Sequence record: NZ_CP087609.1
From: a plasmid
DNA length: 10,062 bases
Direction: 5' to 3' (one strand)
Shown: positions 1 through 10,062 of the stretch, piece by piece
Numbering within the stretch: the first letter of the stretch is position 1
Layout of the letters: every line of letters begins with the position of its first letter
Program-made: the position numbers and the translations under genes
The notes under the pieces: generated by a model
The model's database searches: none
What the model saw: only the letters and a program-made list of their open reading frames with translations
What the model was told of the DNA's origin: nothing

Positions 1-214
1 GATGTTTGAACCAGAGGCCTATGCGGGAAAAATGTGCACCGTGCGGATATCCATACAACGTGATGGCACTCTGAACAGCGCCATTGCTGAAGGAGGAGAT
101 CCGAAACTCTGTAAAGCAGCAATATCAGCCGTTACCCACGCCAAAATTCCGCCGGCACCGGATGAAAATACCTGGCAAATATTCAAAAACGCCCCTCTGG
201 ATTTCAGACCATGA
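1..214 (+). CDS. 3' portion of a TolA C-terminal (domain III)-like protein. It is partial at the window edge and is probably the continuation of the lipoprotein ORF at 9905-10062 across a circular junction.
   Basis: The frame-2 ORF ends ...YAGKMCTVRISIQRDGTLNSAIAEGGDPKLCKAAISAVTHAKIPPAPDENTWQIFKNAPLDFRP*. This aligns residue-for-residue with my recollection of the E. coli TolA C-terminus (SSYAGKTCTLRIKLAPDGMLLDIKPEGGDPALCQAALAAAKLAKIPKPP...VFKNAPLDFKP), including both cysteines. The stop TGA at 212-214 overlaps the ATG of the next gene (ATGA). Confidence 0.7.
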   Translation, partial: MFEPEAYAGKMCTVRISIQRDGTLNSAIAEGGDPKLCKAAISAVTHAKIPPAPDENTWQIFKNAPLDFRP

Positions 215-576
215 AAGCTTTTACTCTGACAGTGCTGGCGGCCATGTTCCTCACTCCGGTACATGCGATACCACTAAAACCCGTAACCACACTGCAGCCA
301 ACCTACCCGGTACAGGCCGCAGCAAAACGCATCGAAGGTCAGGTGACCGCCACGTTTGATATTCTGGACGATGGACGAGTGGACAACGTGTCGCTTACCG
401 GCTGTCACCTTTTTTTTCGGGAAACGCTGACGGCAATGAGGCACTGGCTATATCCCGCAGGGCACCCGGCAATGCGACAGGTTATAAATTTTGAATTCAG
501 TCTGAAAAATGACGGCTTACAGGATCCGCGACCAGTCACCACCCAAAAGCTCAATGATGATGGTTGCCGCCAGTAA
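211..576 (+). CDS. Exported stand-alone TonB C-terminal-domain protein (121 aa). It has a signal peptide and lacks a TonB-like N-terminal anchor and proline-rich spacer.
   Basis: The N-terminus MKAFTLTVLAAMFLTPVHA looks like a Sec signal peptide. The core YPVQAAAKRIEGQVTATFDILDDGRVDNVSLTGCHLFFRETLTAMRHWLYP matches the TonB CTD signature ([32 protein letters not shown]...FEREVKNAMRRWRYEP) as I recall it. It is translationally coupled to the upstream TolA-like ORF. Confidence 0.7.
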   Translation: MKAFTLTVLAAMFLTPVHAIPLKPVTTLQPTYPVQAAAKRIEGQVTATFDILDDGRVDNVSLTGCHLFFRETLTAMRHWLYPAGHPAMRQVINFEFSLKNDGLQDPRPVTTQKLNDDGCRQ

Positions 577-711
577 CAGGTCCTTTAACCCGCAGGCTGC
601 AATAGTCCTGGATGATGAGTGAGCCTGTAGCAGCCCTGATTAGTGGAAGCGAAGCTGAAAAATGGGCAGCAAAAGCCGTATTTCTGGCAAATAGCGCCGC
701 CACGGATTAAA

Positions 712-738
712 GTAGTCATGTGTAATACATATGACTAC
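712..738. promoter_or_regulatory. Imperfect 27-bp palindrome immediately upstream of the antitoxin RBS. It is a candidate autoregulatory operator and promoter for the toxin-antitoxin operon.
   Basis: GTAGTCATgtgtaatacatATGACTAC has perfect outer 8-bp arms and a partly symmetric core. An embedded TAATAC hexamer and an upstream cTGgCA at about 684-689 could serve as -10 and -35. An RBS AAAGGGG follows at 741-747. Confidence 0.4.
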
Positions 739-750
739 AAAGGGGCTTTT

Positions 751-1029
751 ATGTCATCAGCAACATCCATCAGGCTCGATGAAGAACTTAAGGACCGGCT
801 GAAAACGCTGGCCGATGACCGGCACCGCTCAGCGCACGCGCTAATGCTGGAGGCAATCACCGAATACATCGACCGGGAAGAGAAGCGCAGCCAGTACCTG
901 CGGGACGGACAGGCCGCATGGCAGCACTATCAGGAAACGGGTCTGCACCTTACTGCGGAAGAAGCGGAAGCCTGGATAAGTACCTGGGGAACTGAGAACG
1001 AGCAGGATGCTCCGCCATGCCACAGGTAA
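751..1029 (+). CDS. Ribbon-helix-helix (CopG/ParD-like) antitoxin of a type II toxin-antitoxin pair (92 aa from the ATG at 751).
   Basis: MSSATSIRLDEELKDRLKTLADDRHRSAHALMLEAITEYI has the beta-strand/helix pattern of RHH antitoxins. A good RBS precedes the ATG at 751. The ORF-track start at 643 lacks an RBS, so I prefer 751. Its 3' end overlaps the toxin start, giving a stop/start overlap. Confidence 0.7.
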   Translation: MSSATSIRLDEELKDRLKTLADDRHRSAHALMLEAITEYIDREEKRSQYLRDGQAAWQHYQETGLHLTAEEAEAWISTWGTENEQDAPPCHR

Positions 1030-1331
1030 CGATTTCCGCGCTGGCACAGCGCGATTTACAACGCCTTCAGGACTTTCTCAAAACCAAAAATCGGCTGGCA
1101 GCCAGAAAAGGAGGTGAGGTGATCGTCCGGGCTATCCAGCAACTGAAAACATTGCCAGACATTGGCCGCCCGGTGCCGTTTCTGCCGCTGGAATATAAGG
1201 AACTGGTGATCGGGTTTGGCGACAGTGGCTATGTGATGCTCTACCGCCACGACCGGGAAATGGACCAGATTGTGATCGTCACCGTCAGGCATCAGAAAGA
1301 ATCCGGGTATCCGGGGGCAGACAGCCTCTAA
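1017..1331 (+). CDS. ParE/RelE-family toxin (104 aa).
   Basis: The size, position immediately after and overlapping a RHH antitoxin gene, and a sequence pattern (…KELVIGFGDSGYVMLYRHDREMDQIVIVTVRHQKE) typical of RelE/ParE-fold toxins support the call. The ATG at 1017 overlaps the antitoxin 3' end. Confidence 0.75.
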   Translation: MPQVTISALAQRDLQRLQDFLKTKNRLAARKGGEVIVRAIQQLKTLPDIGRPVPFLPLEYKELVIGFGDSGYVMLYRHDREMDQIVIVTVRHQKESGYPGADSL

Positions 1332-1494
1332 TAACCGATGACGGGGGCGCAATTCATTGCGTGGCCGTCGCCGGTTTGACAAGCGCAGCGCGTCAGAAAA
1401 CCACATCCTGAACGGAAAAACGGGTAAAATTCAGCGATACATTTACCGTGAGAAATTACACACCTTTCACACCCGATAAAATCAGGGGTATACA

Positions 1495-1923
1495 GTGGCG
1501 AAAACATTGCTCAACCTTTCACAGGCAGCACAAGCCGCGGGCATTACCAGAAGAACGCTATACAATCATGTAAAACAGGGAAAGGTTACCGTGTCACGTG
1601 ACGGGAAAAACAACCCTGTCGTGGATGTGTCAGAACTGATCCGTGTATACGGAAATGTGAATATCCCTGAGAAACAAATTCCCGGCATTTCACACCGTGA
1701 AAATACACAAAAAAATTTCCCACAGGAACAGCTTCTGGCAATGCAAAAGGAACTGGCCGATCTCCGGCAGGCTGTCACCCTGATGCTGGAAGATAAAACA
1801 TCCCGGGAAGAAGAACGCCGCCAGCACGATGATGAGCGCCGGAAACTCCAGGCCGAAGTGGACAGATTGACAACAGAACTGACACAGAAGAAAAAACGCT
1901 TCTGGTCCGGCTGGTTTAGCTGA
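1495..1923 (+). CDS. HTH (excisionase/MerR-like, HTH_17-type) DNA-binding protein with a C-terminal charged coiled coil (142 aa, GTG start).
   Basis: The N-terminus LLNLSQAAQAAGITRRTLYNHVKQGKV is a classic HTH_17 motif. The C-terminal half is rich in E, R and K and in heptad-like repeats. An RBS AGGGGTA lies 6 nt upstream of the GTG at 1495. Confidence 0.55.
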   Translation: MAKTLLNLSQAAQAAGITRRTLYNHVKQGKVTVSRDGKNNPVVDVSELIRVYGNVNIPEKQIPGISHRENTQKNFPQEQLLAMQKELADLRQAVTLMLEDKTSREEERRQHDDERRKLQAEVDRLTTELTQKKKRFWSGWFS

Positions 1924-1948
1924 GAACTTACCGAAGGGAATGGAGAAC

Positions 1949-2128
1949 ATGACGAAGCAGGAAAAAACTGCCCTCAATATGGCTAAATTCATTAAGGATC
2001 AGTCGCTGCTGTTGCTGGAAAAGCTGAACGAGCTGGACATGGATACCCCGGCCGACATGTGCGAACGGCTTCACGAGGATGCGGAAACACTCTGGCAGGT
2101 GATGCGGGATAAGCTCGGGGAAGAATAA
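1949..2128 (+). CDS. rop: Rom/Rop RNA-one-modulator protein (59 aa from the second ATG).
   Basis: MTKQEKTALNMAKFIKDQSLLLLEKLNELD... closely matches my recollection of pMB1/ColE1 Rop (MTKQEKTALNMARFIRSQTLTLLEKLNELDADEQADICESLHDHADELY...). The ATG at 1949 gives the canonical N-terminus. The ORF-track start at 1940 would add MEN. Confidence 0.85.
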   Translation: MTKQEKTALNMAKFIKDQSLLLLEKLNELDMDTPADMCERLHEDAETLWQVMRDKLGEE

Positions 2129-2163
2129 CAGCACCGGCCATGCCGGTGCTGGCGTTATTTTTT
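2129..2163. terminator. Bidirectional rho-independent terminator between the convergent rop and mob operons.
   Basis: A 9-bp stem CAGCACCGG/CCGGTGCTG (2129-2137 and 2143-2151) with loop CCATG is followed on the plus strand by TTATTTTTT. On the minus strand the same hairpin follows the stop of the 176-aa ORF and is followed by a U-rich tract, UUAUUCUUCC. Confidence 0.6.
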
Positions 2164-2685
2164 GCCGAACGGCCACCACCGGCGGGCGGGTTTGTCCTCC
2201 GGCAGTTCAGGCACCGGCACGTTAAAATAGCGGCTGTTATATTCCCGCATCAGCTCCGCTTTCAGCTTCTCGTTCACCGCGCTTTCCCCGTGCCGCTCGC
2301 TGACCACCTCAATCATCGCGTTAATCTGCTCCGGTGAGCACTTCCCGGCATCAACCACCTGCACACCGTTCTCGATGGCGAACCGCTCCACCTTTCGATA
2401 GAGGTAATCACACAGCTTCATTCCTGTGGGTTTGTCCCGTTCCCATTGCGGATTTTCACCGGTGAAAAAGTACGTGGCTTTTTCGTCGCTGTTGAGCCGC
2501 TCGTCATACATCCCGATGGATTTCATCATCGCCAGATGCTGGGCCCGGTCGACAAAACAGAAAACATACGCCCCGGTCTGCCAGGCGAGCACCACCATGT
2601 CTTCCAGATGCTCGCTGGTTGGCATAATGCAGCGCTCGCCGTCTTTGTCTTCCACGTCCTCAATAAATACCATGTACAGCGCCAT
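2155..2685 (-). CDS. Hypothetical 176-aa protein, the last gene of the mobB-mobC operon. Its function is unknown.
   Basis: The ORF has GGAG 10 nt upstream of its ATG and starts 6 nt after the mobC stop. Its GC content and codon usage match the upstream mob genes. I recognise no family motif. Confidence 0.55.
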   Translation of the reverse strand: MALYMVFIEDVEDKDGERCIMPTSEHLEDMVVLAWQTGAYVFCFVDRAQHLAMMKSIGMYDERLNSDEKATYFFTGENPQWERDKPTGMKLCDYLYRKVERFAIENGVQVVDAGKCSPEQINAMIEVVSERHGESAVNEKLKAELMREYNSRYFNVPVPELPEDKPARRWWPFGKK

Positions 2686-2691
2686 AATCCC

Positions 2692-3423
2692 TCACTCCGT
2701 TGTCATAAATTTAAAGCACGCGAACAGCCTCTCCCGGTCCAGCTCCACCGTTTTGCGGGCCTCGCCGGTCTGTGGATTCACGATTTCATCCACCGCCAGA
2801 ATCGCCCGCTGTACCCGGACAAGCGTCGGCCGGTCAGGGCAGATGTACCAGATTTCATCGATGCCGTTCGCCCGGCGGTTGAACAGATACCCGGACACCA
2901 CTTCCTGATACCGCCTGCGGCTCTTGACGGTGCGCTCTACCTCAAATGCCACCGTTCTGCCGTCCAGCTCCGCCAGCGCGTCCGGCACTTTCATCCCTTT
3001 CAGGGCCATACGGTGCAGGTACCGCCAGCCGGTGGCCCCCCGGCCCTCCATGGAGAGGCGCAGGGACTGCACGGCCAGCCGGTGCGGCAGCTGCGCCGCC
3101 GACACCCTTGACGGCTGAAACGGAATAACGTCCGTCAGCGGCTCGTCCTCGTCGAACGAGAACGCCACCCCGTGCGGCGTCAGCCCCCACACGCTGACCT
3201 GACGGCCGTCAACCGGGTATTTCGCCCGGACCAGCAGCCCTTTCGCCACCAGACTGTCCAGGAAGCGGTAAACCGGCTGTACCGCCGCAATCCCCAGCCG
3301 TCGCGCAACCAGCTCCGCCGTGGAACACAGCTCTTCCCGCAGCCAGCGCAGGGTCAGCCGTGTTTTCTCCGCGTTCCGCGCCTGCCGCTTCGCGTGGCTG
3401 ACGTTGTACTGCTCCAGTGTCAT
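2692..3423 (-). CDS. mobC: MobC-like MOBC-family relaxase with an N-terminal winged-helix (243 aa).
   Basis: The 243-aa ORF has its ATG overlapping the stop of the upstream coupling-protein gene (TGATG). It carries a winged-HTH-like segment (ELVARRLGIAAVQPVYRFLDSLVAKGLLVR) and a D...E-x-K-like acidic/basic cluster (ELDGRTVAFEVERTVK). The gene order and the sizes 654 and 243 aa match my recollection of the CloDF13 mobB-mobC arrangement. The family assignment comes from memory, not from a search. Confidence 0.6.
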   Translation of the reverse strand: MTLEQYNVSHAKRQARNAEKTRLTLRWLREELCSTAELVARRLGIAAVQPVYRFLDSLVAKGLLVRAKYPVDGRQVSVWGLTPHGVAFSFDEDEPLTDVIPFQPSRVSAAQLPHRLAVQSLRLSMEGRGATGWRYLHRMALKGMKVPDALAELDGRTVAFEVERTVKSRRRYQEVVSGYLFNRRANGIDEIWYICPDRPTLVRVQRAILAVDEIVNPQTGEARKTVELDRERLFACFKFMTTE

Positions 3424-5387
3424 CAGTAAAGCCCCGCAAAATCATCATCCGCTTTTGGTCCGCCGCCGTCGGCCGGAGGCAGGTACTCCGCCAGCGGGTC
3501 CGTTTTCGCCAGCACCGGGAAGGTTTTCAGCGAAATTTCCCGGCGCTCAACCCGCAGCGGGCTGCTGAACGCCAGCCGCGCCACGCCCAGCCCGGTCATC
3601 ACCGCGAACCCGTCAGGCAGGTGTTGCAGGGTGTTCACGTCAAACAGCGGCCGCGCCTCCTTCTGGATGAAGCTGTCGCCGCTGATGTGCTCCACGTTCC
3701 CCGCCTCCCGGCTGGCCCGGCGGCGCTCCACGTCCACCCGGATCTCCCCGGTCTGGCCCGCCGCCCACTGCGCGGACTCCTGGCTGGCCGCGCGATAGAA
3801 CCAGCGGATCGGCGTGTTATCCAGTACCGTGGTTTTCACAAAATCAGCGGGCAGATCCTGCCCGCACTGACCGAAGTCGCCCAGCGACTGGTGCGCGAGC
3901 AGCAGGTTGCAGTCCCGGCTGCGCAGCGTCCCCAGCGCGTTCAGCACGTACTTCGACAGCAGATATTTAATCTCATCGAGCATGATGCTCGCGTGCGGCC
4001 ACCTCCGGAACTCATCCCGCGCAATGATGATTTGCGCGCAGCGGGCAAACAGCATCTTCTGCACCCGGATCACCGCCTCATCGTCCATCGAGCCGATGAC
4101 GTACAGGCAGCCGCCGCCGTTGATTATCCCCGCCACATCGATACCGCTGTCCGTCTGCAGGACGCTCAGGTCGGCCACGTTCTCCAGCTTGGTGATCAGC
4201 CCCTTCACGTCCTTTTTCAGGGCCTCCGGCAACGCGTACGCCGCCGCCAGCACCTGCTGAATGTTTGCCCCCTGCGGGAACTGCTCCGCAATCAGCTTCG
4301 CCGCTTTCTGCTCGCTGATGCGGTAGTGGTCCGCCACGTCGCCGGTCTCACTCAGGTTAAACCCGGCAACCAGCAGATTCTTCAGGGCGTACTGGTCGAG
4401 ATCGCGGAACAGATTCAGCTGCGCCGGTTTCCCCGGCCGCAGATCCAGCAGGGTGAAGTCCGGGCAGTGCGCCCGGAAGACGTGCGGCGCCCACGCGTCC
4501 CCTTTGGGGTCGAAGTACACCACAGCGTCCCCGAAATCGCGTACGCAGCGAATGAGCGCGTTGGTGGCCATCGCGCTCTTGCCGCTCCCGGGCAGGCCGA
4601 GGATCTGAATATTGGTCTTGCGCCAGGTATCACGAGGGACCAGCACCGGCTGGCCCTGCTCATCCTTACCCAGAAACACCGCCTGCTGTTTCCGGGCCTG
4701 CTCCGTGGAAAAATCGGCCAGCGCGTTAACCGGTACCGGCTCCCCGAAATGCAGGTGGCGGACGTCTGTCATTTCTCCGGTCCGCTGGCTGCTGCGCCGG
4801 CTCTCCTGATTCAGTTTCGCGTTCACCGCCTCGTCAGCGGCCGCAAAATGACCATCAAGCAGCAGGAACGCCAGCAGCCGCGCCAGAAGGACGCCGGCGA
4901 CAAGCCCTCCGGCACACCAGGCTATCCCGAACAGGTTAGCCGGCTGCAGCAGGTAATAATCTGCGTTCGCATAGAGGTCCGGGCGCAGGACGGTTTCTCC
5001 CCAGCTCTCGATAAACACGGCGACAACCAGCCCCCCCAGAAGGGCCAGACCGGCAGCGCCGGTCAGCCAGTACGCGTAGTTCCAGACATGTCGCCGTGCC
5101 CTGACCATCCGCCCGGGTGAATCCAGCGAGGCCAGCACCGAAAATGGCACAGTCCGGTTATTATCGCGCTTATAGCGATCGGCATACTCCCGCCGCGCCT
5201 TATGGCTCAGCCCCACAAAACGCATTCGGCCGGCCCAGAGTTCAGCCAGACCGAAAAACAGGCCGATAACCAGAAAAAAACCGGCCAGACTGTAATACTC
5301 CCGGTACAGCCAGCTGACCCACGGGTAAATCTGCCGGGCCAGCTCCGGGATATGCCACTGCCAGGCAAGCGAATCCGTATTAAACAT
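3423..5387 (-). CDS. mobB: Type IV coupling protein (VirD4/TraG/TraD-like, CloDF13 MobB-like), 654 aa with N-terminal transmembrane segments.
   Basis: The N-terminal 150 aa contain at least two long hydrophobic segments. A Walker A motif ILGLPGSGKS sits within a T4CP-like core (VLVPRDTWRKTNIQILGLPGSGKSAMATNALI...). A strong RBS AAGGAGAGAG precedes the ATG at 5387. Confidence 0.8.
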   Translation of the reverse strand: MFNTDSLAWQWHIPELARQIYPWVSWLYREYYSLAGFFLVIGLFFGLAELWAGRMRFVGLSHKARREYADRYKRDNNRTVPFSVLASLDSPGRMVRARRHVWNYAYWLTGAAGLALLGGLVVAVFIESWGETVLRPDLYANADYYLLQPANLFGIAWCAGGLVAGVLLARLLAFLLLDGHFAAADEAVNAKLNQESRRSSQRTGEMTDVRHLHFGEPVPVNALADFSTEQARKQQAVFLGKDEQGQPVLVPRDTWRKTNIQILGLPGSGKSAMATNALIRCVRDFGDAVVYFDPKGDAWAPHVFRAHCPDFTLLDLRPGKPAQLNLFRDLDQYALKNLLVAGFNLSETGDVADHYRISEQKAAKLIAEQFPQGANIQQVLAAAYALPEALKKDVKGLITKLENVADLSVLQTDSGIDVAGIINGGGCLYVIGSMDDEAVIRVQKMLFARCAQIIIARDEFRRWPHASIMLDEIKYLLSKYVLNALGTLRSRDCNLLLAHQSLGDFGQCGQDLPADFVKTTVLDNTPIRWFYRAASQESAQWAAGQTGEIRVDVERRRASREAGNVEHISGDSFIQKEARPLFDVNTLQHLPDGFAVMTGLGVARLAFSSPLRVERREISLKTFPVLAKTDPLAEYLPPADGGGPKADDDFAGLY

Positions 5388-5399
5388 GCAATCTCTCTC

Positions 5400-5940
5400 C
5401 TTCAGACGACGGGTTTACCGGCGTGATGCGCAGCCCCCGCTGCACAAGCCGCGGACATGCCCCAAGGCATGGCGGCGGCGGTCACGTCCGTGGTGATTGC
5501 GTTCAGCTTTCACCGCGGAGGCCAGCCTCTTTCCGCCCCATGCGGAAAAGGCGCAGCCCCGGAGGAACAACGAGCACGCCCCAGCGTGTGAGAGGAAAAG
5601 GCGGCACCCCAGTGCGGTCTTTTCCGGTGTTCCGGCCCCCGTCAGAGTTCGCCATAGCGAGCGGCTGACCACCCGCAAAATCAGGAGCAGCTTTGCTGCT
5701 TCGTCAGGTGCGTCCAGCACCGTGGATTTTTGTGGGTGGTCAGGCGTGAGCCTGACGGGGGCCGGGTGAATTTCTGGCGTGGCCGGCGTCCAGCCGGACA
5801 GAGCCAGAAAGAGGGGAAAAGACCGTGCGTCGGTGGCGTCCAGCCAGCGTAAGCAAGGTCTTTTCCCCTGAAGTCAGCCACGCCCCAGCGGGGATGACTT
5901 GCATTTCTCCGCAAGGAGAAAAAAGCAACAGAGATAGGTT
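5400..5940. other. GC-rich non-coding block upstream of mobB carrying hairpins and short direct repeats. It is a candidate oriT and leader of the mob operon.
   Basis: I find no protein-like ORF here. A hairpin at 5528-5550 reads CTTTCCGC-cccat-GCGGAAAAG. A direct repeat GAAAAGGCG(C/G)CA(G/C)CCCC occurs at about 5545 and 5596. GCGTCCAGC occurs three times, at 5710, 5786 and 5836. A hairpin GTCAGGC-gtga-GCCTGAC at 5739-5756 is preceded by TGTGGGTG. A 12-bp inverted repeat GGGGAAAAGACC/GGTCTTTTCCCC (5813-5824 and 5858-5869) encloses one GCGTCCAGCC copy. Confidence 0.4.
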
Positions 5941-6673
5941 AACGTAAAATGTTCAGCGAAAAACCGACATGGTTCACCTATCCTGATAATTGATCGTCAG
6001 GGAATAGAAAGACTTAATCAGGGGACAATATCCCACATCAGCGCGTCCGGTGACCGTCTTGCAGGTGCCGGGGAAATTGCGCCTCCTCGCTCACTCGGTC
6101 GCTACGCTCCGGGCGTGAGACTGCGGCGGGCGCTGCGGACACATACAAAGTTACCCACAGATTCCGTGGATAAGCAGGGGACTAACATGTGAGGCAAAAC
6201 GGCAGGGCCGCGCCGGTGGCGTTTTTCCATAGGCTCCGCCCTCCTGCCAGAGTTCACATAAACAGACGCTTTTTCGGTGCATCTGTGGGAGCCGTGAGGC
6301 TCAACCATGAATCTGACAGTACGGGCGAAACCCGACAGGACTTAAAGATCCCCACCGTTTCCGGTAGGTCGCTCCCTCTTGCGCTCTCCTGTTCCGACCC
6401 TGCCGTTTACCGGATACCTGTTCCGCCGTTCTCCCTTGCGGGAAGTGTGGCGCTTTCTCATAGCTCACACTACTGGTATCTCGGCTCGGTGTAGGTCGTT
6501 CGCTCCAAGCTGGGCTGTAAGCAAGAACTCCCCGTTCAGCCCGACTGCTGCGCCTTATCCGGTAACTTTCATCTTGAGTCCAACCCGGAAAGACACGCAA
6601 AAACGCCACTGGCAGCAGCCATTGGTAACTGGGAGTTCGCAGAGGATTTGTTTAGCTAAACACGCGGTTGCTC

Positions 6674-6703
6674 TTGAAGTGTGCGCCAAAGTCCGGCTAC
6701 ACT
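6674..6703 (+). promoter_or_regulatory. RNA I promoter (-35 TTGAAG, -10 TACACT).
   Basis: TTGAAG at 6674-6679 and CTACACT at 6697-6703 are positionally equivalent to the pMB1 RNA I promoter. The start is near 6710. Confidence 0.55.
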
Positions 6704-6709
6704 GGAAGG

Positions 6710-6815
6710 ACAGATTTGGTTGCTGTGCTCTGCGAAAGCCAGTTACCCGGTTAAGCAGTTCCCCAACTGACTTAACCTTCGATCAAACCACCTCCCCAGG
6801 TGGTTTTTTCGTTTA
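6710..6815 (+). ncRNA. RNAI: RNA I antisense copy-number regulator.
   Basis: ACAGATTTGGTTGCTGTGCTCTGCGAAAGCCAGTTACC...CACCTCCCCAGGTGGTTTTTTCGTTT parallels pMB1 RNA I (ACAGTATTTGGTATCTGCGCTCTGCTGAAGCCAGTTACC...GGTGGTTTTTTTGTTT). It ends in a stem plus U-run terminator. The loop regions differ from pMB1. Confidence 0.8.
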
Positions 6816-6824
6816 CAGGGCAAA

Positions 6825-6853
6825 AGATTACGCGCAGAAAAAAAGGATCTCAA
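6825..6853 (-). promoter_or_regulatory. RNA II promoter (-35 TTGAGA at 6848-6853, -10 TAATCT at 6825-6830, read on the minus strand).
   Basis: The minus strand reads TTGAGAtcctttttttctgcgcgTAATCT with a 17-bp spacer, as in pMB1. Confidence 0.6.
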
Positions 6854-6862
6854 GAAGATCCT
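6837..6862 (-). terminator. Hairpin plus U7 on the minus strand immediately after the lysis gene. It is the likely terminator of the bacteriocin operon and overlaps the RNA II -35.
   Basis: The minus strand reads AGGATCTtcttgAGATCCT followed by TTTTTTT (complement of A6837-6843). The lysis gene stop is at 6873-6875. Confidence 0.45.
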
Positions 6863-6872
6863 TTGATCTTTT

Positions 6873-7022
6873 CTACTGAACCGCGATCCCCGTCAGTTCA
6901 GAGGAGGACGATGGTGCCACCGTTCCGCCCTGAACATCCCGGATATAATTTGCCTGACATGCGGCCAGAAGAAAGCCAGCAACAATCAATATAAAAAGAA
7001 AAATAGTCTTTACCTTTTTCAT
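6873..7022 (-). CDS. Bacteriocin release (lysis) lipoprotein, 49-aa precursor. It is not in the supplied ORF track.
   Basis: My minus-strand translation is [49 protein letters not shown]. The lipobox LLAAC, the mature 28-aa peptide and the overall sequence match colicin and cloacin BRP/lysis proteins as I recall them. An RBS AGGGAAAG precedes the ATG. Confidence 0.85.
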
Positions 7023-7042
7023 ATACTTTCCCTGTATTTAAA

Positions 7043-7075
7043 GACTCCGGCATTCATCCCTGAACACCGGAAGTC
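7043..7075 (-). terminator. Imperfect hairpin between the immunity and lysis genes. It is a possible partial terminator or attenuator limiting lysis-gene expression.
   Basis: The minus-strand RNA reads GACUUCCGG-(16 nt)-CCGGAGUC followed by UUUAAAU. The stem has one bulge and the U-tract is weak. Confidence 0.25.
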
Positions 7076-7106
7076 AGTATTTCAAATCATCCTTGATAAT
7101 TTTTTG

Positions 7107-7364
7107 TTACCAGTTACCGTCCCGATAATCAAAAGCTATATAACAATTATCCACATCAGGTTTTATTTGATTTTTAAAAAATGGCTGTAGTAAAGGAACC
7201 CATTCTTTCTTCAAATCAAACTCACCATTATTAATATTATCCTTTAAAGGCATTCCCAAGCTTTCAATGACAGAACCATCGTCACCAAAGTCTTTAGAAT
7301 ACTCTTCCCCTTTAAACTCTTCAGTTTTCTTATCAAACCATGTCAAACGTAATTTAAGCCCCAT
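7107..7364 (-). CDS. Immunity protein of the colicin E3/cloacin DF13 (rRNase) type, 85 aa.
   Basis: [43 protein letters not shown]...WVPLLQPFF...FDYRDGNW closely parallels my recollection of ImmE3 ([43 protein letters not shown]...FDYRDGDW). An RBS GAGAGG lies 9 nt after the bacteriocin stop. The gene is AT-rich. Confidence 0.9.
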
Positions 7365-7373
7365 ATTTACCTC

Positions 7374-9059
7374 TCAAAGATATTTTTTAATGTTCCGTTT
7401 TGGATCTGGCCCTTTAACCTGCTTACCCGTTTTGGGATCAAATGCGCCTAGGTGTTCGCCATCACTGGCACGATACCCTTCAAGCTCACCGTGCTGGGAA
7501 TCCCATTCATAAATTTTACGTTTTTTATCGCCATACCATCGGGCCCGCTTACCACCACCACCTTGTTTAGGTGTTTTAGGATCACCTCGCTTTAACTCTC
7601 CAAGTCCCTTTATGTCTTCTGTTTTAGGTACTGGATGATAATCATGGCCGTAGTCTTTAGTCCCCTTGCGAGGCTTGTTCTTTTCCTCATTTAACTTATT
7701 TTCTGCATCCTTCGCTTTTTTCTCCTTTTGTTTCCGGCTCTCCATCGCCCCGGTAAGTGCAGCCTTATCTCTGGATAAGGATTCATTCATTGCGTTTAAA
7801 GATGCCTGAGCCGCTTTTAATTTCTCATTCTGATTCTGAATATCCTTATCAAGATAGCGAACCTGATCCTGCCACCCGGAGCCATATTCATGAGGCGGGT
7901 TATAAGTCACAAAATCATCTTTATTTGCCTCTGCCTCTTTTACCTTTTTATCGGCTTCCTGAACAGCAGCCCTTGCACCGGGGAGCGCCTTCTCTGTCGA
8001 TGCAATGCGGCTGTTTAAGGTCGCAATATTTTTATCTTCGGCATCCAGCTCAGCTTTCGCTTTATCATAGTCTCTTTTCAGCCCCTCTTCCGGATGAGCG
8101 GCGTCCCATGCCTGCTGGCGACGCTTTTCTTCCTCCTGACGCTGTTTTACCTGTGCCGGGGTAAGAACATCTGTCACCGACACATAAACCGGCTTCTGTC
8201 CGGTCTCTTTCGGGAAACGAATAACGGCCTCACGGGAGTTACCACCGGCTGTAAAACCAGCCGGACGTGAATCACCTTTTTCAGCAACAATGCCTTTTGG
8301 CGGGGCTTTCGCTGTCGGAACACCTTTCGGTACGCTCACCTGCAGAGACGGGAGACCCGGAATCGACACACTGAATACCCCCGGACGTTTTGTCGGTTTC
8401 GCATCCACCACAGGGACACTCATTGGCCGACCTGCGACAACCGCAATATGCTGCCGCTCATCCTTCACCACATCCACAACCCGTTGTCTGACACGAACCG
8501 TCGCCTGGTCCAGTGGTAAAGTACTTGCCGGAGTCTCCGTCACCGCATCGGCCGGTAATGACGTCATAATTTTTGACATCATTTTCGGATCATCTTTTGC
8601 AATCTCAGAAGGCAGCACACCGTAGATCGCAATCCCCCACAGACCAAACTTAAACGGCCCCTTCAGGGCAGCCAGCACATCAGCAACGGCGGCCGACAAC
8701 GCATCGCCGGAAACTGATAAAGCCAGTCCTTCAGCCCCCGGAGTAGCCAGGGCAGGCAGACCGAAGGCCATCGCAGTGGCCGAAGACTGTCCGCCACCAG
8801 AGCTACCGCTATGATTGCCGCTGTTACCACCATTACCACCGGGTTTACTCCCGCCGTTACCAAACTCCCCCGGATTATAGTTATGAATATCTCCATTCGG
8901 CGTATGCGTCGTACCCCAGCCCGGCCCGCTGTTTGGATCCGTACCACCACCTGATGAAGGGCCACCTTTACCAGACGTACCGTTCACATTCCCACTGGCC
9001 TGACCACCATTATGTCCCAGACCTGAATTACCCGGACCTCGACCGTCTCCACCACTCAT
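7374..9059 (-). CDS. Cloacin DF13-like bacteriocin, 561 aa. It has a glycine-rich N-terminal translocation domain, a central receptor-binding region and a C-terminal 16S-rRNase domain.
   Basis: The N-terminal roughly 100 aa are rich in G, S and N (MSGGDGRGPGNSGLGHNGGQASG...). The C-terminus ...DYGHDYHPVPKTEDIKGLGELKRGDPKTPKQGGGGKRARWYGDKKRKIYEWDSQHGELEGYRASDGEHLGAFDPKTGKQVKGPDPKRNIKKYL matches my recollection of the colicin E3 rRNase domain (...DYGHDYHPAPKTENIKGLGDLKPGIPKTPKQNGGGKRKRWTGDKGRKIYEWDSQHGELEGYRASDGQHLGSFDPKTGNQLKGPDPKRNIKKYL). The length equals that recalled for cloacin DF13. Confidence 0.9.
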   Translation of the reverse strand: MSGGDGRGPGNSGLGHNGGQASGNVNGTSGKGGPSSGGGTDPNSGPGWGTTHTPNGDIHNYNPGEFGNGGSKPGGNGGNSGNHSGSSGGGQSSATAMAFGLPALATPGAEGLALSVSGDALSAAVADVLAALKGPFKFGLWGIAIYGVLPSEIAKDDPKMMSKIMTSLPADAVTETPASTLPLDQATVRVRQRVVDVVKDERQHIAVVAGRPMSVPVVDAKPTKRPGVFSVSIPGLPSLQVSVPKGVPTAKAPPKGIVAEKGDSRPAGFTAGGNSREAVIRFPKETGQKPVYVSVTDVLTPAQVKQRQEEEKRRQQAWDAAHPEEGLKRDYDKAKAELDAEDKNIATLNSRIASTEKALPGARAAVQEADKKVKEAEANKDDFVTYNPPHEYGSGWQDQVRYLDKDIQNQNEKLKAAQASLNAMNESLSRDKAALTGAMESRKQKEKKAKDAENKLNEEKNKPRKGTKDYGHDYHPVPKTEDIKGLGELKRGDPKTPKQGGGGKRARWYGDKKRKIYEWDSQHGELEGYRASDGEHLGAFDPKTGKQVKGPDPKRNIKKYL

Positions 9060-9099
9060 ACCGTTTTCCTCTTTGACATTTAAAACAATAAATTAAAGC

Positions 9100-9165
9100 C
9101 AACATACTGTACATATACACAGTATAATTATTACCTTACTCCTCCCGTTTTCAGGTGTCAATATA
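9100..9165 (-). promoter_or_regulatory. SOS-regulated bacteriocin promoter. A LexA box lies at 9107-9122 inside a 20-bp palindrome, with a candidate -35 TTGACA at 9157-9162 on the minus strand.
   Basis: TACTGTacatatacACAGTA (9105-9124) contains CTGT-N8-ACAG and is a perfect 20-bp palindrome. On the minus strand TTGACA lies upstream and an AT-rich TAATAATTATACT region could provide the -10. The exact -10 cannot be fixed by eye. Confidence 0.6.
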
Positions 9166-9290
9166 TGAGATTAGTTCTCATCTTCAGGCACAAAAAAGCG
9201 CCCGGAGCCACCTGTAAGCAGATCGCGTCTTTTCCCGAAAATTTCTCATGGCAACAAATTTTATTATTTAAGACATTCATCACACTTACA

Positions 9291-9317
9291 TTTCAGATGG
9301 TATAGACACATCTGAAA
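9291..9317. promoter_or_regulatory. A 9-bp inverted repeat with a 9-nt loop in the intergenic region between the bacteriocin promoter and the 81-aa ORF. It is a candidate operator or RNA hairpin.
   Basis: The sequence is TTTCAGATG-gtatagaca-CATCTGAAA. The loop contains a TATAGA hexamer. Confidence 0.3.
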
Positions 9318-9385
9318 GCTAACTGGCATGAGGAGAGGACCTGCGGTTAAACTGTTCGGGAAACCTGAGACGCCCGGAGGCCACT

Positions 9386-9631
9386 ATGACGCACCTGAAA
9401 CTGACTCCCGCTGAAGAAAAGCGCCTGGCGGACGCCTTTGTCGCTCAGGCACTGGCCATGGGCCTGAAAGGGAACAAAACGCTGCCAAAGGCGGTAAAAC
9501 AACAGGTGCGGGAAAGGGTGCTTCGTGCCATTCAGGACGAACGTGAAGCCAGGCGGGCGCAGGAAATGCGTCGGGAGAAATACGAGGCTACGGAAACCAC
9601 CTTCACCTGGCAGCCACAGCGCCGCCGGTAA
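9386..9631 (+). CDS. Hypothetical 81-aa basic, helical protein of unknown function.
   Basis: GGAGG lies 7 nt upstream of the ATG. The sequence is rich in A, K, R and E and predicted helical (…VLRAIQDEREARRAQEMRREKYE…). It ends 5 nt before the Xer-site core. I recognise no family. Confidence 0.5.
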   Translation: MTHLKLTPAEEKRLADAFVAQALAMGLKGNKTLPKAVKQQVRERVLRAIQDEREARRAQEMRREKYEATETTFTWQPQRRR

Positions 9632-9636
9632 GGGGT

Positions 9637-9665
9637 ATTTACCATAACGTCGCATTGCCCGCACC
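9637..9665 (-). other. cer-like XerC/XerD plasmid multimer-resolution core site. Candidate accessory sequences, including an ARG-box-like TGCAT-N4-ATGCA at 9767-9780, lie at about 9666-9850.
   Basis: The minus strand reads GGTGCGGGCAA-TGCGACG-TTATGGTAAAT. The XerD arm is identical to ColE1 cer (TTATGGTAAAT). The XerC arm GGTGCGGGCAA can be compared with cer GGTGCGTACAA. By my count the central region is 7 bp. TGCATgcctATGCA about 100 bp to the XerC side resembles an ArgR box. Confidence 0.55.
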
Positions 9666-9904
9666 GCTCAGACGGTCTGAGGGCGTTTCCGGCGGCTACG
9701 GGATAAAACAGGCAACAAACCACCCGGAAAACCGCCGGAAACGCGCCCGGTAAATTGTAACCCGCTGCATGCCTATGCACGCAACTGCATGGCGGGCCGT
9801 TTGGTGTAAAAACGATACGATAAGCCGTGTTTATGTAAATGAACGTGGCCGTAAAGAGTGACAAATATACATGTAACATTTTTTACTGACAGGTCATCAA
9901 CCCG

Positions 9905-10062
9905 ATGCGTTTAATACCCTTTATCCTGCTGGCATTGTGCAGCCCCTTACTCCTGACGGCCTGTAAGCATTCCACCACCCAGCCGCCGAAAATTTATACT
10001 CTGGATAAGTCATCTAAAATCAGTAGCTACGCTGCGGCCATCAAGACCGCTGTTGAAATGCA
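9905..10062 (+). CDS. N-terminal part of a lipoprotein (signal peptide plus lipobox LLTAC). The ORF runs off the window end and continues in-frame into the TolA-III-like ORF at positions 2-214 if the ends are joined.
   Basis: The translation is MRLIPFILLALCSPLLLTACKHSTTQPPKIYTLDKSSKISSYAAAIKTAVEM.. with an open frame to the last base. 'SSYAAAIKTAVE' aligns with TolA '…NNYAGQIKSAIES…', which lies just upstream of the TolA segment matched by the ORF at the window start. The upstream RBS is weak. Confidence 0.6.
   Translation, partial: MRLIPFILLALCSPLLLTACKHSTTQPPKIYTLDKSSKISSYAAAIKTAVEM

Follow-up and report, generated by a model that had tools for sequence, protein, structure and literature searches.

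The closest described relatives of the plasmid considered here are the classical cloacin DF13 plasmid, CloDF13 (NC_002119.1 / X04466, 9,957 bp), the MS5538 plasmid (PMC10269471), and a group of ColRNAI/MOBC cloacin plasmids of about 10 kb from Klebsiella pneumoniae, of which pH39-4 (NZ_CP096233.1, 10,058 bp), NZ_CP066893.1 (10,013 bp) and NZ_CP097671.1 (10,033 bp) are examples. CloDF13 has previously been compared with two Klebsiella cloacin plasmids (Microbiol Spectr 2023; PMC10269471), in a study that dealt with the same plasmid variant as the one described below and noted a TolA and a "TolB family" gene that are absent from CloDF13. The plasmid type is therefore already known, having been described in 2023, and we believe that the "TolB family" gene of that study is the one annotated "TonB family" in the sequences examined here. 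Our subject is the sequence record NZ_CP087609.1, a plasmid stretch of 10,062 nucleotides (the window, by which we mean the whole of the DNA analysed), and within it a gene for a predicted TolA-domain-III lipoprotein, which begins shortly before the last base of the window and continues from its first.

The K. pneumoniae plasmids of about 10 kb agreed with the whole window (100%) in gene content and gene order, at identities of 97-99.6%, with only point differences, small indels and other arbitrary start bases distinguishing them from it. For pH39-4 (97.9% identical overall), the divergence lay mostly within window positions 1-7605, whereas positions 7606-10062 were 99.9% identical. The NZ_CP097671.1 record looks error-laden, with its mobB and cloacin genes split into many small coding sequences (CDSs), and its tolA-like gene truncated.

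A first-pass annotation had proposed that the two ends of the window join in-frame inside one gene, and the sequence bears this out. The frame that opens with the ATG at position 9905, which is preceded by an in-frame stop at 9887, is still open at the last base of the window, having run for 158 nucleotides, or 52 codons (...TAVEM) and a residual CA. As that annotation had also read, base 1 (G) completes a CAG codon, encoding Gln53, after which the frame reads on through MFEPEAYAGK... as far as a TGA (positions 212-214). The joined open reading frame (ORF; 9905-10062 + 1-214) thus consists of 123 codons, with a 123-residue product. The 5' part of this junction gene (9905-10062, plus strand) contains codons 1-52 and two nucleotides of codon 53, and encodes a predicted signal peptide with a lipobox, which a short linker connects to the first part of a TolA-domain-III fold. 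The 3' part (1-214, plus strand) contains the last base of codon 53, codons 54-123 and the TGA.

We investigated the continuity of this join in deposited plasmids, using an artificial junction sequence of 1000 nucleotides (9563-10062 + 1-500) as a query against 72,556 plasmid records. The junction was contiguous at 100% identity in six Klebsiella pneumoniae plasmid records, and was found at a coverage of at least 80% in 29 records. Each listed match contained an intact "tolA" CDS, followed by a "TonB family protein" CDS, and the uninterrupted 372-nucleotide CDS annotated in the junction-matching records (WP_001237044.1) encodes a protein identical to the joined product. In a pairwise comparison with the circular plasmid pH39-4, window bases 10062 and 1 mapped to the adjacent bases 2457 and 2458. 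Window positions 1-7605 corresponded to pH39-4 positions 2458-10058, and window positions 7606-10062 to pH39-4 positions 1-2457, so that the sole break in the alignment was the arbitrary origin of the pH39-4 record itself. We could find neither a terminal overlap of 5-199 nucleotides at the window ends nor internal direct repeats of 25 nucleotides or longer across the window. The contiguity of the junction in other records, the adjacency of the corresponding bases in pH39-4, and the lack of overlaps and repeats together indicate that nothing is missing or duplicated at the junction. Both ends were also alike in composition, with a GC content of 0.52 and a GC skew of about -0.09.

The protein encoded across the junction matched the Pfam family TolA_C (PF06519) in one stretch, from residues 35 to 121 (profile positions 9-96 of 96, E=2.4e-24). 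Residues 37-123 aligned without gaps to Escherichia coli TolA domain III in the structures 1S62, 3QDP, 1TOL and 2X9A (E about 6e-24), with 42 of 87 residues identical (48%), of which 7 of 16 lay before the junction codon and 35 of 70 after it. The claim that the merged protein follows TolA domain III across the junction was therefore upheld, and the TolA string quoted in its support was exactly that of the PDB alignment. Joining the ends and translating them, the check that had been put forward for this claim, yielded the 123-residue ORF with a TolA_C alignment that was unbroken at the junction.

Some 25-30 circular plasmid records covered 100% of the window, and in 31 records a single place covered at least 80% of it. 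The unit-length relatives (10,013-10,141 bp) are circular plasmids from clinical K. pneumoniae, with one from K. aerogenes, and are typed as ColRNAI_rep_cluster_1857, with the relaxase type MOBC (PLSDB), and as mobilizable. Longer relatives consisted of the same plasmid with an insertion of Tn3/blaTEM-1, IS1, ISKpn21 or a group II intron. The earlier suggestion that the window is a linearised, complete circular replicon of about 10.06 kb thus finds support in about 30 circularly permuted deposited plasmids, and the comparison with known plasmids that had been proposed to examine it returned Klebsiella plasmids at 100% coverage, and CloDF13 over the backbone. We put at roughly 93% the probability that the window represents one complete copy of a circular ColE1-type mobilizable cloacin plasmid of K. 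pneumoniae, of about 10.06 kb. We infer that the window start is an arbitrary base in codon 53 of the 123-codon gene; a start inside a gene is presumably unsurprising here because a ColE1-type replicon has no rep gene to which assembly software could rotate the sequence.

Two other explanations of the join have to be weighed against this reading. The window might be a linear fragment with an unrelated partial ORF at either end, the two being in compatible phase by coincidence, which has a one in three chance as far as phase alone is concerned; but both halves form one TolA_C domain, gapless at the junction, and the joined DNA is contiguous at 100% identity in independent records. Together with the mapping onto pH39-4, these matches lead us to reject coincidence, the probability of which we consider negligible. 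Several deposited sequences weigh against the window being a free monomer, and would fit instead with its being one repeat unit of a tandem multimer or of a larger co-integrate. These include a head-to-tail dimer of 20,110 bp, multi-copy records with two or three copies or places (such as a 27,281-bp record with three places), and a 45-kb IncFIA/IncFII co-integrate (CP032837.1), which carries most of the plasmid, from cloacin to rop. The circularity of this very molecule is, moreover, inferred from its relatives and not from the window alone, and a unit cut from a dimer or a co-integrate would look identical to the window. Nonetheless, the 10-kb unit accounts for every base of the window, without foreign DNA and with a junction showing neither loss nor duplication, and a chance cut of exactly one unit length would be improbable. 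An origin from a multimer or co-integrate is thus very unlikely, and even if it applied, the underlying element would be the same circular plasmid.

We identified clear differences in architecture between the product of the junction gene and chromosomal TolA. The E. coli protein has an inner-membrane anchor (domain I) and a long helical domain II, both of which are missing from the junction protein, while the likeness to domain III extends to the C-terminal FKNAPLDF(K/R)P motif and to both cysteines. The N-terminus of the junction protein, MRLIPFILLALCSPLLLTAC-K, contains a lipobox (L-T-A-C) in which Cys20 is followed by Lys, and under the standard sorting rule for lipoproteins this residue pair predicts an outer-membrane location. 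Because a lipoprotein signal takes the place of domains I and II, the protein would have no coupling to TolQR, and could not be an energised TolA. The database name "cell envelope integrity protein TolA" arises because the protein passes the cutoff of TIGR02794 (72.9 against 59.45 bits), but its score falls short of the 213 bits required by the full-length equivalog NF007065 (101.9 bits, over positions 299-386 of 387), and neither model was matched outside its last 88 positions. The product is therefore, as far as can be predicted from its sequence, not TolA but a lipoprotein with domain III only. It was 100% conserved in 39 records, the DNA backbones of which differ by up to 3%.

Immediately downstream, we identified a gene on the plus strand (211-576) for a secreted protein of 121 residues, with a signal-like N-terminus and a TonB C-terminal domain (PF03544, E=8.9e-11). 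Its ATG at position 211 overlaps the stop codon of the junction gene (ATGA, 211-214), so that the two genes are probably co-translated. The protein passed TIGR01352, matched the TonB C-terminal domain structures 1XX3 and 1U07 in the PDB (E about 1e-15), and retained the motifs YP and RIEGQV...DGRVDNV. Only the C-terminal 80 or so positions of the TonB models were matched, with 55-59 bits against equivalog cutoffs of 265-448, and neither the N-terminal anchor nor the proline-rich spacer of TonB was found in the product of 211-576. Thus, neither this protein nor its neighbour can be an energised TonB or TolA, and their partner-binding domains would sit free in the periplasm. The pair thereby mimics both envelope import machines at their partner-binding ends.

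We additionally identified homologues of the junction protein on other mobile elements. TolA-III lipoproteins are encoded on some 300 large Klebsiella plasmids of the IncF(K) type, as exemplified by WP_001567367.1 (144 residues; a gene of this kind lies at 3782-4216 in the locus examined from the plasmid pCuAs, NZ_CP006663.1). A further example is the "TolA protein" (142 residues; 2297-2725 in the locus examined) of the lambdoid phage mEp460_ev081, the gene for which occupies an accessory position between Q and the lysis genes. These proteins share the architecture of the junction protein, with a lipobox at residues 17-20, a linker and TolA domain III, although WP_001567367.1 and the mEp460_ev081 protein are only 64% and 36% identical to it, respectively. 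The phage protein family PHROG 5772 matched the junction protein over its full length (E=1.9e-23). The genomic contexts differ: the IncF(K) gene adjoins a gene for a secreted thioredoxin-fold protein, and neither the IncF(K) nor the phage locus contains an adjacent gene with a TonB C-terminal domain. The domain-III-only lipoproteins of the IncF(K) plasmids and of the phage are all annotated "TolA".

The window had been described in the first-pass annotation as a CloDF13-like plasmid, a description that is appropriate to the backbone and to the backbone only. CloDF13 aligned to window positions 1943-9629 at 93-94% nucleotide identity, with 76% of the window aligned. The aligned span covers rop, an ORF of 176 codons (orf176), the mobilisation genes, the replication origin, the cloacin operon and an ORF of 81 codons. 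A separate block of 70 bp (1328-1396) was 97% identical. In contrast, CloDF13 has its genes K and L where the window carries accessory genes. The tolA-like junction gene, the tonB-like gene, copG, parE and a gene for a helix-turn-helix (HTH) protein of 142 residues had no tblastn match, and thus no counterpart, in CloDF13, while searches of the K and L products against Pfam returned nothing useful. The rop gene is disrupted in the deposited CloDF13 sequence. On this comparison the backbone is of the CloDF13 type, and the junction gene belongs to a variable accessory segment next to a putative Xer site.

Some features of the 1986 CloDF13 sequence itself may be noted. Translations of its mobB and mobC were only 52-58% identical to the window proteins, and fell into several pieces, whereas the DNA is 93% identical. 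The low protein identity fits with frameshifts in the 1986 sequence, a record that looks error-laden. Similarly, orf176 is 92-97% conserved in CloDF13, although a frameshift in the 1986 record splits it.

The Xer site, on the minus strand (9637-9665, read from 9665 to 9637), consists of a putative XerC arm, GGTGCGGGCAA, the central region TGCGACG and a putative XerD arm, TTATGGTAAAT, the last of which exactly matches what we take to be the corresponding arm of cer. A 28-nucleotide Xer pattern that allowed for a centre of 6 bp had no match in the window because the site has a 7-bp spacer, and it was identified from the XerD arm and by direct reading. The site shows the make-up of a cer-like element, in which two 11-bp arms enclose a centre of 6-8 bp and some 180 bp of accessory sequence adjoin the XerC arm; by homology, plasmid multimers would be resolved here by XerCD. 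The putative accessory sequences lie on the side of the XerC arm (9666-9832, minus strand), and were recognised from their similarity to the region of the CloDF13 site, with window positions 9636-9832 being 81% identical to CloDF13 positions 4772-4968, a region that starts at the Xer core of CloDF13 itself. The core sequence of CloDF13 differs from that of the window, reading GGTACCGATAA-GGGATG-TTATGGTAAAT.

In the window site, the XerD arm together with the central region is identical to an orphan half-site found just after gene K in CloDF13 (4383-4400), and the accessory sequences resemble those of the different, full site of that plasmid (4773-4801). The variable segment, from the tolA-like gene to parE, is flanked by the Xer site on one side and by the conserved 70-bp block on the other. 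The identity of the half-site and the borders of the segment suggest that modules may have been exchanged at Xer sites.

The remainder of the plasmid is occupied by genes for bacteriocin production, replication, stability and mobilisation. The cloacin operon, on the minus strand, contains a gene for a cloacin-type bacteriocin of 561 residues (7374-9059), with translocation, E2R135 receptor-binding and E3-type ribosomal-RNase cytotoxic domains (PF03515, PF11570 and PF09000). It is accompanied by genes for an immunity protein of 85 residues (7107-7364; PF03513, E=3.4e-39) and a bacteriocin release (lysis) lipoprotein of 49 residues (6873-7022), the latter assigned from the annotation of pH39-4 and 92% identical to the CloDF13 lysis protein. 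An ORF at 6898-7053 on the minus strand was considered as the lysis gene, and was rejected, as the pH39-4 annotation maps that gene to 6873-7022. Upstream of the cloacin gene (9105-9124, minus strand), direct reading of the sequence revealed a near-consensus LexA (SOS) box, TACTGTGTATATGTACAGTA, as judged against the established LexA consensus. The three-domain bacteriocin, immunity gene, lysis lipoprotein and SOS box are those of a cloacin DF13/colicin E3-type operon. By homology, SOS induction would lead to the production of a 16S rRNA-cleaving cloacin together with the proteins for its immunity and release. Identity to cloacin DF13 reaches 96.3% for the bacteriocin, whereas the immunity protein is only 72.9% identical to that of CloDF13, a contrast that fits with toxin and immunity having diverged in specificity, chiefly within the C-terminal domain.

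The inventory given in the first-pass annotation proved sound in what it listed, with one RNAI and origin region, one mobilisation module, one cloacin operon, one Xer core, rop and a CopG/ParE pair, but it did not include the gene with the TonB C-terminal domain or the ORFs of 142, 176 and 81 codons. The antisense regulator RNAI (6711-6812, plus strand; RF00106, full-length 1-102, 75.3 bits against a gathering score of 47) was the only Rfam match in the window, and was present in a single copy. Since it lies on the plus strand, RNAII would be read on the minus strand, with a ColE1-type origin roughly 0.5 kb to the left. The rop gene (1949-2128, plus strand; PF01815, E=3.6e-37) encodes a 59-residue modulator of RNAI-RNAII pairing. 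A different ORF (2140-2337, plus strand) was considered as rop, wrongly, as the pH39-4 annotation places the gene at 1949-2128. No Rep family was found above its cutoff among the 13 main ORFs, the only match being a sub-threshold one to NF038291. Homology to ColE1 and CloDF13 suggests that RNAII would prime replication, with antisense RNAI and Rop holding it in check. Processing of RNAII by RNase H at the origin, and Pol I-dependent initiation, may likewise be presumed, because the origin region is 94% identical to that of CloDF13 and near-identical records are typed as ColRNAI.

Downstream of the TolA-III and TonB-domain genes, on the plus strand, we identified a CopG/ribbon-helix-helix antitoxin of 92 residues (751-1029; PF01402, corresponding to WP_000093040.1 in pH39-4) and a RelE/ParE-family toxin of 104 residues (1017-1331; PF05016, E=1.8e-12), a pair that would stabilise the plasmid. 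The mobilisation genes are on the minus strand, and comprise mobC (2692-3423), for a MOBC-type replication-relaxation protein of 243 residues (NF041423, 247.6 bits against a cutoff of 200; PF13814), and mobB (3423-5387), for a TraG/TraD-like coupling-type protein of 654 residues (PF12696, 26 bits against a cutoff of 22). The region upstream of mobB was 93% identical to CloDF13, and mobilisation would proceed, by homology, through the CloDF13-type MobC relaxase and the coupling-type MobB. An antisense ORF of 567 codons (3417-5120, plus strand) in this high-GC region is almost certainly spurious. The plasmid as a whole is a compositional mosaic, with 60-69% GC in the mobilisation region (2800-5800) against 33-41% at the immunity and lysis end of the bacteriocin operon (6800-7600).

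Three further ORFs were identified. The gene of 142 codons (1495-1923, plus strand, with a GTG start) encodes a predicted HTH and coiled-coil protein, with a weak match to HTH_17 and sub-threshold matches to NF038291, "plasmid replication DNA-binding protein" (61 bits against a cutoff of 85), and to mad1 in PADLOC (E=1.7e-6). The ORF of 176 codons (2155-2685, minus strand), downstream of mobC and conserved in CloDF13, had no match in Pfam, NCBIfam, PHROGs or PADLOC. The ORF of 81 codons (9386-9631, plus strand) is 98.8% identical to a CloDF13 ORF, and had no match in the family searches.

Finally, we considered what the TolA-III and TonB-domain proteins might do together. Several group A colicins attach to TolA domain III through their translocation domains, as do the filamentous-phage protein g3p through its N1 domain and TolB through its N-terminus, while the C-terminal domain of TonB recognises the TonB box that outer-membrane transporters and group B colicins carry. 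Among the structure matches were the solved complexes 1TOL, 2X9A, 3QDR, 2GSK and 2GRX. Over-production of TolA domain III in the periplasm was reportedly found to render E. coli colicin-tolerant and somewhat leaky (by Levengood-Freyermuth, Click and Webster, J Bacteriol 1993). The most parsimonious interpretation, which we hold tentatively and at odds clearly worse than even, is that the pair may form a periplasmic decoy module that alters the susceptibility of the host to imported bacteriocins or phages. This idea draws support from the lipobox with its Cys20-Lys pair, from the restriction of the junction protein to domain III, from the association with a TonB-domain partner with a signal-like N-terminus, and from the recurrence of TolA-III lipoproteins on IncF(K) plasmids and in a lambdoid phage. 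Such decoys would capture the epitopes with which bacteriocins or phage proteins entering the cell, or partners belonging to the host itself, bind Tol and Ton. With TolA domain III anchored in the outer membrane and a TonB C-terminal domain soluble in the periplasm, TolA-binding and TonB-box epitopes would both be intercepted, and such interception would extend to group A and group B bacteriocins, and to phages that use Tol or Ton. Three results weigh against a decoy function. Literature searches found nothing specific on a function for plasmid TolA-like genes or for a TolA-III/TonB-domain pair; a PADLOC search returned no match bearing on such a role; and neither a promoter scan nor direct reading revealed a convincing sigma-70 promoter or Shine-Dalgarno sequence immediately before the ATG at 9905, with the plus-strand promoter-scan match falling inside the junction gene.

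Other roles, or none, may be envisaged for the pair. It might loosen the outer membrane by titrating TolB- or Pal-side partners, and thus aid the release of the plasmid's own cloacin, which would accord with the location of both genes on a bacteriocin plasmid, and with the leakiness said to accompany colicin tolerance when TolA domain III is over-produced in the periplasm. However, the pair is not transcribed with the SOS-controlled cloacin operon but apart from it and in the divergent direction, the homologous lipoproteins of IncF(K) plasmids and phage have no bacteriocin nearby, and CloDF13 releases its cloacin without the pair; we therefore consider a release aid unlikely. That the junction gene is instead a relic, left by a chromosomal tolA fragment that was captured and no longer functions, is suggested by its limited identity to E. 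coli TolA domain III, by the missing domains I and II, and by the lack of a clear promoter or ribosome-binding site. Against this, the ORF is intact and its product invariant among backbones that have themselves diverged, it has acquired a lipoprotein signal peptide that is absent from chromosomal TolA, and the combination of this signal with domain III recurs in diverged homologues on other mobile elements. A relic is thus quite unlikely, and we favour a selected function because of the complete conservation of the protein, the existence of diverged homologues with the same architecture and the full-length match to PHROG 5772.

The split of the junction gene is an artefact of where the numbering starts in a common and already described plasmid, and the join, while real, is ordinary. 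The annotation of the record should nonetheless join the two ends, as otherwise the tolA-like gene will either be overlooked or be annotated twice, in pieces. The lead that merits a note is a predicted domain-III-only lipoprotein, publicly annotated "TolA", and its pairing with a TonB C-terminal domain. If the pair does act as a decoy, the host would gain a broad tolerance that is independent of specific immunity proteins. The architecture recurs on many Klebsiella plasmids and in a phage, and the related TolA-III lipoproteins of about 300 IncF(K) plasmids and of the lambdoid phage would act likewise.

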